This document shows, one piece after another, positions 8,097 to 8,659 of a stretch of 10,392 nt of DNA (positions are counted from its first letter, which is position 1; the number at the start of each line of letters is the position of its first letter). The notes under the pieces are model-generated. The model did not search any database. It was not told where the DNA came from and saw only the letters and a list, made by a program, of their open reading frames with translations. Position numbers and translations under genes: made by a program. This DNA comes from a virus (taxonomy: Duplodnaviria > Heunggongvirae > Uroviricota > Caudoviricetes): the IMG/VR virus record IMGVR_UViG_2534681697_000028, positions 1 through 10,392 of that record. The stretch is one strand, 5' to 3'.

Positions 8097-8194
8097 TTTG
8101 AGTGACAAAACTCAAACTGTGCGCACAGATTAAAATCATGTGTGCGCACATGTCAATACTTAACATCTCATTTTTTTTGCTGTATTGTGTGCGC
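8097..8194 (+). promoter_or_regulatory. operator-like palindromes TGTGCGCACA upstream of the RHH gene
   Basis: 12-bp perfect palindrome ctgtgcgcacag (8117-8128), 10-bp perfect palindrome tgtgcgcaca (8141-8150), half-site tgtgcgc (8188-8194), and hairpin tttgagt-gacaaa-actcaaa (8097-8116), all within 130 bp of ATG 8225. Confidence 0.55.
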
Positions 8195-8224
8195 CCATAA
8201 AGTCCATTTAAGTGAGGTGCATCA

Positions 8225-8422
8225 ATGTCTAGCGGTAACACAAACAACAAATCAGCAAAGAAAAATATTCGATTCCCACATGAGCTTATAGATGGGGTTG
8301 ATGCCAGCGTTGAACAAGAAAAATTAACTAATCCTAGTGCTAATTTTTCCGCATGGGTCTTAGATGCCTGTGGACGCAAATTAAAATATGAACAGCGCCG
8401 GAAGGCCAAAGAATCAGAATAA
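8225..8422 (+). CDS. ribbon-helix-helix (Arc/MetJ/CopG-like) DNA-binding protein, candidate repressor
   Basis: 65-aa ORF with SD GAGG 7 nt upstream. Motif KKNIRFPHELIDGVDASVEQE...SANFSAWVLDACGRKL fits the RHH strand/helix/helix pattern. Transcribed opposite to the rest of the element. Confidence 0.7.
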   Translation: MSSGNTNNKSAKKNIRFPHELIDGVDASVEQEKLTNPSANFSAWVLDACGRKLKYEQRRKAKESE

Positions 8423-8446
8423 TCACTATCAGCGCCGTGGCGTGAG

Positions 8447-8659
8447 GTGCTACGGCGCATTGCTTTACAGGTACACACAATGACCAACAAAGAATCAACC
8501 AATACACCATCGCAAAAAACGAACAGAGAGCACGAAAATATGGCGCTCGAGCATGAATCAGAAAGATTCGCACCATGTGCTTTTGCCCTTGAGCAATTCC
8601 TAAAAGAGTACAGGGAAACGCGCTCATTGCAGGTATGGCAACGAACTGAACCAGACTGA
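8447..8659 (+). CDS. hypothetical ORF downstream of RHH gene (start uncertain; in the same frame as the RHH gene, separated by one TAA)
   Basis: Track ORF; no convincing independent SD or start codon. Reading through the TAA at 8420-8422 would give a single ~144-aa product. A plus-strand terminator follows at 8755-8781. Confidence 0.3.
   Translation: MLRRIALQVHTMTNKESTNTPSQKTNREHENMALEHESERFAPCAFALEQFLKEYRETRSLQVWQRTEPD

Follow-up and report, generated by a model that had tools for sequence, protein, structure and literature searches.

The 10.4-kb stretch of DNA analyzed here (positions 1 to 10,392 of IMG/VR virus record IMGVR_UViG_2534681697_000028, classified as Caudoviricetes; hereafter called the window) is a phage satellite of the phage-inducible chromosomal island (PICI)/P4-like kind found in Gram-negative bacteria, and in our reading its interval 8097-8659 is the regulatory core of that satellite. 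The interval contains ylcI, which encodes a small ribbon-helix-helix (RHH) protein of the YlcI/YnfO family, three operator-like sites upstream of ylcI, and a second small gene that we call orfD. In what we consider the best explanation overall, and a reasonably probable one on the strength of sequence comparisons, YlcI would be a repressor of the satellite's early promoter, orfD would be a separate gene, and both would lie antisense within a long open reading frame (ORF) resembling eta of satellite P4, the whole forming a switch between two transcriptional states.

YlcI and its predicted operators

The YlcI protein of the window passes the curated family cut-offs of NCBIfam NF041551 YlcI_YnfO_N (57.9 bits; cut-off, 30) and of Pfam DUF3950 (26.8 bits; cut-off, 25), and the Prokaryotic Genome Annotation Pipeline (PGAP) gives the YlcI/YnfO name to homologues of 97 to 98% identity. 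Its predicted fold, an N-terminal strand followed by two helices, agrees with solved RHH domains; a search of PDB sequences with the YlcI profile gave no match, and a literature search found no functional study of YlcI, YnfO, or DUF3950. The homologues fall into 115 clusters of 53 to 113 amino acids. After the RHH domain, YlcI keeps only about 15 basic residues. The plus frame of ylcI has the lowest ratio of nonsynonymous to synonymous differences (pN/pS), with synonymous sites saturated.

Two perfect 10-bp palindromes (O1 and O2, both TGTGCGCACA) and a third site with one mismatch (O3, TGTGCGCCCA) were found upstream of the gene (Table 1). The initial annotation of this DNA, made by a model from the letters alone, had pointed to an RHH regulator with palindromic operators and to two perfect palindromes upstream of its gene. 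The palindromes are there, and the comparison with other loci bears out this part of the proposal: the sites keep fixed positions in related loci, and they covary with residues of the recognition strand. With at most one mismatch allowed, TGTGCGCACA has only three matches in the 10.4 kb (about 0.6 expected; three were reached by 6 of 200 shuffles), and all three fall inside 80 bp.

The set of loci that was compared consists of 12 loci from other genera, 13 annotated Escherichia coli or phage loci, and 55 IMG/VR loci; 50 IMG/VR loci made up a second, independent sample for the frame and operator counts. In 76 related loci, the three sites occupy constant positions relative to a conserved GTCAA and a TGTATnGT-like motif. 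The same three positions were found in 26 loci of Escherichia, Klebsiella, Enterobacter, Serratia, Rahnella, Pectobacterium, Proteus, Xenorhabdus, Erwinia, and Pasteurella, and O3 is perfect in loci L005, L006, L007, and L014. At least 10 distinct site sequences occur among the loci, each present three times in its own locus; examples are TGTGCGCACA, GGTGTTTAAACACC, GGTGTCAGCCAC, GGTGTTGAACACC, GGTGAAATACACC, and GGTGCACCCCCAC, with the consensus GGTG-N6-CAC(C).

The site sequence and the YlcI residues immediately preceding the invariant IRFP strand vary together. KKN, KKY, and KKG strands pair with GCGC-centered (GCGCACA-type) sites, and YKG strands pair with TTAA-centered TGTTTAAACA-type sites (8 loci, from two independent samples). 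Furthermore, the window has ylcI and the operators in common with L001 and L002, from which its alpA region differs, and has alpA, the activator gene, in common with L016, from which its ylcI and operators differ; we conclude from these comparisons that the operators go with ylcI and not with the alpA allele. Taken together, the comparisons argue strongly for binding of YlcI to the three sites, and its predicted role as a repressor and autoregulator is well supported by sequence.

Binding to these sites might also mean that YlcI is an activator or architectural factor, acting for example on its own promoter from about -50/-72, or that it marks a site of replication or packaging. The centers of O2 and O1 are indeed about 50 and about 73 bp upstream of the predicted ylcI start, which are activator-type positions, and lambdoid homologues stand beside cos. 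However, on the leftward promoter, whose -35 is perfect, the same sites take up the classical positions for repression (about -24 and +1), and O3 covers the -10 of ylcI itself. Most RHH regulators are repressors. An activating or architectural role is unlikely in our judgment, and we prefer repression.

The lambdoid homologues are those of the K-12 prophage DLP12 (L027, 4252-4446) and of the lambda group (L028, 200-394). The two are identical and are found on the upstream side of the small terminase gene, with cos about 200 bp away. The GGTG-N6-CACC triplet was looked for at both of them, and none was found.

Predicted back-to-back promoters and the leftward RNAs

The predicted promoter of ylcI scored 9/12 in a consensus scan, and its TGTATnGT-like -10 beside O3 is conserved in relatives. 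Back to back with it is a leftward early promoter, also predicted, that corresponds to P4 PLE and has a perfect -35; by inspection of the sequence, the candidates for its -10 are TTTAAT, TTAATC, or TAATCT in 8134-8127. The scan passed over this promoter, the -10 candidate at the allowed spacing having no A at position 2. The GTCAA motif adjoins O2 in nearly all loci, including 48 of the 50 IMG/VR loci of the independent sample.

Because O2 lies between the -35 and the -10 and O1 lies at the start site, bound YlcI should block the leftward promoter. The idea of an autoregulated repressor, put forward in the initial annotation, holds in that O3 covers the -10 of ylcI, but the two perfect sites are on the divergent promoter, which had been missed. 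Autoregulation is the lesser part of the story, since two perfect sites sit on the promoter of the early operon.

The leftward promoter leads to an ATG at 8019 with GAGG 5 nucleotides (nt) upstream, the counterpart of P4 kil. Farther along, Rfam models match an isrK/seqA-like element with its terminator, a C4/CI-type immunity antisense RNA, and an a1/b1-type target of C4 RNA (Table 1); the first two of these are inside the eta-like ORF.

Just to the left of O1, a GC-rich hairpin (8050-8086) is conserved in all loci, with some compensatory changes (one pair is CG in 7 sequences and AU in 5). It resembles a plus-strand terminator facing the operators because most loci have a T-rich run on the plus strand. 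Another candidate, a promoter at 8665-8693 (TTGCCC, 17 nt, TATCAT) for a small plus-strand RNA, was no better than chance and was rejected.

An eta-like frame kept open antisense to ylcI

The eta-like ORF begins with an ATG at 8793, 12 nt past the stop codon of alpA (8808-8810); in other loci the two genes overlap or are separated by gaps of 11 to 58 nt. The frame is stop-free in 22 of 24 related loci, being open for 204 to 460 codons in 12 E. coli-type loci and for 165 to 723 codons in 10 of the 12 loci from other genera, and it reaches at least 150 codons in 48 of 50 IMG/VR loci. In the 215 nt upstream of ylcI, which are noncoding on the plus strand, there are 11 stop trinucleotides in the eta phase versus 134 and 132 in the others, and the same 215 nt in the independent sample have 13 versus 285 and 371. 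For the window alone, a shuffle null for the open eta frame gave a P value of 0.0006. The frame opposite the K-12/lambda homologue of ylcI, which served as a control, runs into stops 26 nt before the gene and 49 nt past it. We infer that the eta-like frame is under selection to stay open.

Third codon positions of the eta-like ORF coincide with those of ylcI and orfD. The two genes are in one frame because the conserved spacer between them is 57 nt, and because they share that frame, one antisense frame can stay open over both. In the locus of Erwinia tracheiphila (L014, about 2954-3001), a run of about 17 A's in the 5' part of ylcI shifts the frame, and this locus is one of two in its set with the antisense frame closed; for these two reasons L014 is probably a decaying copy.

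The eta-like ORF matches Phage_ASH (50 bits) and Icd-like (55.9 bits) profiles. Over the ylcI/orfD stretch, the minus-frame peptide is rich in Cys and Ser and belongs to no family before residue 234 (PHROGs) or residue 291 (Pfam and NCBIfam). The Phage_ASH match and parts of the "Icd-like" and "transcriptional repressor" protein matches overlie the isrK and C4 RNA genes (7723-7911), and tblastn matches to Shiga toxin phages align exactly over the RNA region (residues 22 to 124). Since the matches coincide with RNA genes, these protein families may partly reflect conserved RNA. At the other end (region 8749-8793), the eta-like ORF shares its first codons with a plus-strand terminator hairpin (MTNTKKAAPIWSRLS); locus L010 (Klebsiella) has a different hairpin there, so the apparent peptide similarity reflects the hairpin.

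In P4, eta is a Phage_ASH "Bro network" gene that is coupled to the alpA homologue and has a constitutive internal promoter as well as the seqA and CI RNAs inside it, and translation of eta from the upstream late promoter prevents termination (PMC10111431). In our reading, the window has an immunity region of the P4 type that appears to have received an RHH repressor module in antisense orientation while keeping its eta frame.

Public annotations of the region conflict, because ylcI and its operators are nested in an antisense ORF. The depositors of Pmp7 and vB_KppS-Ant annotated the minus-strand ORF alone, and PGAP has minus-strand pseudogenes there; the eta-like frame is open in a Pasteurella satellite whose depositors annotated the minus ORF alone. 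These annotations, together with a frame that is open and selected to stay so, could be taken to mean that the long minus ORF (Bro network/Ash/Icd-like) is the real gene and that ylcI and orfD are its shadows. We regard this as very improbable: the plus frame has the lowest pN/pS, YlcI is predicted to have an RHH fold, the operators covary with the YlcI strand residues, the homologues in lambda and K-12 have no long antisense ORF, and the minus-strand peptide over the ylcI/orfD stretch has the Cys- and Ser-rich composition and the absence of any family match before residue 234 that were given above. In the reading that we favor, ylcI/orfD and the minus ORF can both be real.

orfD is a separate gene in E. 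coli-type elements

The ATG of orfD (8480) is 57 nt past the TAA of ylcI and has AGG 8 nt upstream, or AGGA 7 nt upstream in most relatives. Every orfD homologue begins at this same ATG, which does not agree with the earlier remark that the downstream ORF has no convincing start. The homologues form 30 protein clusters, all from E. coli, of 41 to 100 amino acids, with the common core EHESERFAPCAFALEQFLKEYR followed by at least four unrelated C-terminal tails, and the ORF is kept with each. The tail DNA of L021 and L023 has been replaced, yet LE.FLK.Y is kept by synonymous and conservative changes. Because orfD and the antisense frame have their third positions in common, codon periodicity cannot tell them apart; we therefore relied on tail replacement and on the ratio of nonsynonymous to synonymous substitution rates (dN/dS), which is 0.39 to 0.44 for orfD, the best of the six frames, and 0.55 to 0.57 for the antisense frame.

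The orfD product matches PHROG 21027 and is predicted by AlphaFold2 to form two helices (core predicted local distance difference test score, 94). Searches of Pfam, NCBIfam, and PADLOC found nothing meaningful and no toxin or defense family. Within E. coli-type elements, orfD is conserved as a separate gene. It is absent in 42 of the 55 IMG/VR loci and from all 12 loci of other genera, where only terminators are found, directly 3' of ylcI. We conclude that orfD is a separate gene, probably cotranscribed with ylcI.

The spacer between the two genes contains a hairpin (GCGCCGTGG...CTACGGCGC) that has no proper T tract, carries GAGG in its loop, and is nearly invariant in all RHH-orfD cassettes, even beside diverged flanking genes. 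The loop (8442-8450) repeats GTGAGGTGC, an exact 9-mer (8212-8220) that contains the Shine-Dalgarno sequence of ylcI. The unit ends in a strong intrinsic terminator just before alpA; relatives with a second, nonhomologous class of 3' flank have a plus-strand terminator at the same place. Right after the orfD stop (window 8661-8690), the 15-mer CATTGCCCACCAGCC is invariant in all E. coli-type loci, even with both flanks replaced, and in the window it is followed by the palindrome TGATAGCGTCTATCA; this may mark the junction of modules or serve as a binding site.

Locus L023 (1-1756; E. coli UC4315) contains three tandem cassettes, each of an RHH gene, a 57-nt hairpin spacer, and a small ORF, and long antisense ORFs continue across the array. 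One of the cassettes encodes a non-YlcI RHH protein (FQFRLDPDLREKMEKA...) and has its own TGTGTATATACACA-type palindrome. The triplication in L023, once with a non-YlcI RHH gene, suggests that orfD acts as an accessory partner of RHH genes. Between the orfD profile and the 75-amino-acid protein of L023, only a 15-residue motif aligns (probability, 16%), which is suggestive of paralogy.

The initial annotation had further noted that the downstream ORF is in the frame of ylcI after a single stop, and had suggested a two-domain ancestor, readthrough, or a toxin-antitoxin-like pair. No stop stands between the TAA and the TGA at 8657-8659 in the window, as it said. A single intervening stop is true of the window itself; in L001, L002, L019, and 9 of 12 IMG/VR relatives, the spacer holds a second stop in this frame. 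The common frame, the lone TAA of the window, and the constant 57-nt spacing in all cassettes would suit one two-domain protein of about 144 amino acids made by suppression of the TAA, or a degraded fusion of that kind. Against it, none of the 115 YlcI clusters and none of the 30 orfD clusters spans both parts, the former being without the downstream sequence and the latter being separate proteins; the orfD homologues start at their own ATG, other genera have no orfD, and the second spacer stop recurs in the relatives just named. The ylcI stop also stands in the context TAAT, which is the most efficient termination context in E. coli. Such a protein is improbable in the extreme. It had also been said that the proposal would fail should homologues always stop at the TAA, with no conservation of the ORF behind it, and this is what was found beyond the E. 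coli-type elements, but within them orfD is kept.

In a type II toxin-antitoxin-like pair, the RHH protein would be the antitoxin and autorepressor, and orfD would encode a small toxin. The evidence is against such a pair: the orfD protein is only 59 amino acids long and helical, with no match to Pfam, NCBIfam, PADLOC, or any toxin family; the 57-nt gap with its hairpin is not tight coupling; the basic residues after the RHH domain leave little space for a toxin-binding region; ylcI stands alone in most genera; and two of the three operators are on the divergent promoter rather than on that of the pair. We judge the pair decidedly unlikely and retain the view of orfD as a separate gene beside a repressor gene.

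A proposed switch

In the explanation that we prefer, YlcI would bind GGTG-N6-CACC, probably as pairs of dimers, and would thereby shut off leftward transcription into the isrK and C4 RNAs, the kil/Ash/Icd-like ORF, the DUF4222 gene, and the primase gene. Binding to O3, which is weaker in the window copy and lies on the -10 and start site of ylcI, would provide negative autoregulation. The joint changes of operators and strand residues among relatives would define different repressor specificities. Transcripts from the alpA side would be translated through the eta-like frame and, by analogy with P4 eta, may be insensitive to termination dependent on the C4/CI RNA; this leftward transcription would converge on the rightward transcription of ylcI and orfD. 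The two would act as a switch with mutually exclusive states, a quiescent one in which YlcI is on and an induced one in which alpA and eta are on.

A broader form of this proposal can be put forward, although we consider it less likely than not: YlcI-type RHH proteins might be the repressors and immunity-specificity determinants of a large Gram-negative PICI/P4-like group, encoded antisense in a translated eta-like ORF that is kept open only for the passage of ribosomes, with convergent transcription acting as the switch between quiescence and induction.

Several points weigh against the proposed switch. The corresponding promoter of P4 is constitutive (PMC10111431) and is needed for the immunity RNA; YlcI on the leftward promoter would lower the immunity RNA as well, which is not obviously useful. 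Both promoters in the window are consensus predictions, and the leftward -10 is imperfect. The recognition code is also imperfect, the KKN proteins of L012 and L013 having rather different sites. The family may differ in role in lambdoid phages, because the cos-side ylcI homologues are without the GGTG-N6-CACC triplet. The coding signal of orfD is only moderately above that of the antisense frame, and its family is narrow. Finally, the satellite copy in the window is probably defective, having both a nonsense codon in alpA and an IS110 insertion.

AlpA acts as an activator in Gram-negative PICIs, for which no global repressor has yet been identified (PMC6092414). YlcI would be a concrete candidate for such a satellite repressor, with many specificity types. 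It is unusual for a protein gene to be nested, together with its operators and promoter, in an antisense ORF, and the eta-like ORF is stop-free over ten genera and two bacterial orders. The region would be a clear natural case of selection on the openness of a frame and not on its peptide.

The satellite and its other genes

The features of the window are listed in Table 1. Codon 11 of alpA (8984-8982) has changed to TAG from the CAG seen in the copies of E. coli Nissle and strain 2013C-3277, which are otherwise the same, and because of this nonsense codon the alpA of the window copy is probably dead. The leftward operon is interrupted by the IS110 element (about 6092-7287), with the C4 target region on one side and the DUF4222 gene on the other. 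The two transposase fragments of the element are on the plus strand, and ylcI is consequently not the only well-supported plus-strand gene, as had been claimed. The region is matched in 1,702 of 5,426 complete E. coli genomes, strain Nissle among them; there PGAP names the plus-strand gene "YlcI/YnfO family protein" and the left neighbors "Ash family" and "Icd-like."

Table 1. Features of the window, with positions counted from its first letter
Feature	Position	Strand	Remarks
Lambda-type head decoration and major capsid genes	1097-2467	minus	
D5_N/DUF5906 primase	3569-5323	minus	
DUF4222 gene	5320-5619	minus	
IS110-family transposase, two ORFs (DEDD_Tnp_IS110, Transposase_20)	6092-6580, 6871-7287	plus	
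a1/b1-type C4 RNA target	7400-7449	minus	Rfam RF03163, 48.5 bits (gathering score, 46.7)
Eta-like ORF, 437 codons	8793 to 7480	minus	Antisense to orfD, ylcI, and the operator/promoter region, then Ash/Icd-like part
C4/CI-type immunity antisense RNA	7723-7810	minus	Rfam RF01695, 78.6 bits (gathering score, 45)
isrK/seqA-like RNA element with terminator	7835-7911	minus	Rfam RF01394, 56.6 bits (gathering score, 50)
O1 (predicted operator)	8118-8127		TGTGCGCACA; at predicted start site of leftward promoter
Predicted leftward early promoter (P4 PLE counterpart)	8127-8156	minus	-35 TTGACA, 8156-8151
O2 (predicted operator)	8141-8150		TGTGCGCACA; in spacer between leftward -35 and -10; center 23 bp from O1 center
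Predicted ylcI promoter	8160-8188	plus	TTAACA 8160-8165, 17 nt, TATTGT 8183-8188
O3 (predicted operator)	8188-8197		TGTGCGCCCA, one mismatch; overlaps -10 and start site of ylcI promoter
ylcI, 65-amino-acid YlcI/YnfO (DUF3950) protein	8225-8422	plus	TAA 8420-8422; Shine-Dalgarno GAGG 8214-8217
Spacer hairpin	8432-8458	plus	In the 57-nt ylcI-orfD spacer
orfD, 59-amino-acid small helical protein	8480-8659	plus	Own ATG; TGA 8657-8659
Strong intrinsic terminator	8749-8781	plus	Ends ylcI-orfD unit, just before alpA
alpA-type gene (P4 vis counterpart)	8808-9014	minus	Aligned with intact copies of L015 and L016
Integrase	9490-10392	minus	

Comparison with known systems

YlcI shares its predicted fold and palindromic operators with RHH antitoxins (TacA, ParD, VapB, and CopG type). 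Unlike them, it has no recognizable toxin partner or toxin-binding tail and stands alone in most genera. In the immI region of P22, which encodes the RHH proteins Arc and Mnt and includes Pant and sar, palindromic operators lie on back-to-back divergent promoters beside an antirepressor-type early operon and an antisense RNA. The window resembles it in having a small RHH regulator, operators over divergent promoters, and an antisense RNA layer. There is, however, no detectable sequence relationship between the two; the window has one RHH protein and three sites, its RNA layer belongs to the C4/CI type of P1 and P4, and its RHH gene is antisense inside an eta-like ORF. The immI region of P1/P7 (c4 RNA, icd, and ant) likewise has an Icd-like ORF preceded by a C4 antisense RNA and its a1/b1-type targets, whereas the C4 unit of the window is downstream of a promoter predicted to be under operator control; we know of no divergent RHH gene in P1 immI.

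In Gram-positive PICIs, the gene of the master repressor (Stl/Rpr) is divergent from the satellite's replication and packaging operon (PMC6092414), and the window likewise has a candidate repressor gene divergent from a satellite operon. Stl differs from YlcI in being much larger, in being unrelated to RHH proteins, and in being inactivated by proteins of the helper phage.

A further close arrangement is that of the P4 immunity region, with PLE/PLL, the nested eta and kil, seqA, the CI RNA, and vis. In both, a long ORF comes directly after an alpA/vis homologue; this ORF bears a Phage_ASH signature, holds an internal early promoter together with RNAs of the seqA/isrK-like and CI/C4-like kinds, and leads on to the primase gene. 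The eta frame of P4 is open over 8170-8821, and tblastn searches of P4 with YlcI and with the orfD protein gave no match. The P4 eta gene is about 200 codons long, its opposite strand is empty, and PLE is described as constitutive, whereas the ORF of the window runs for 437 codons, has an antisense RHH gene (with or without orfD), and contains an internal promoter that is covered by the predicted operators.

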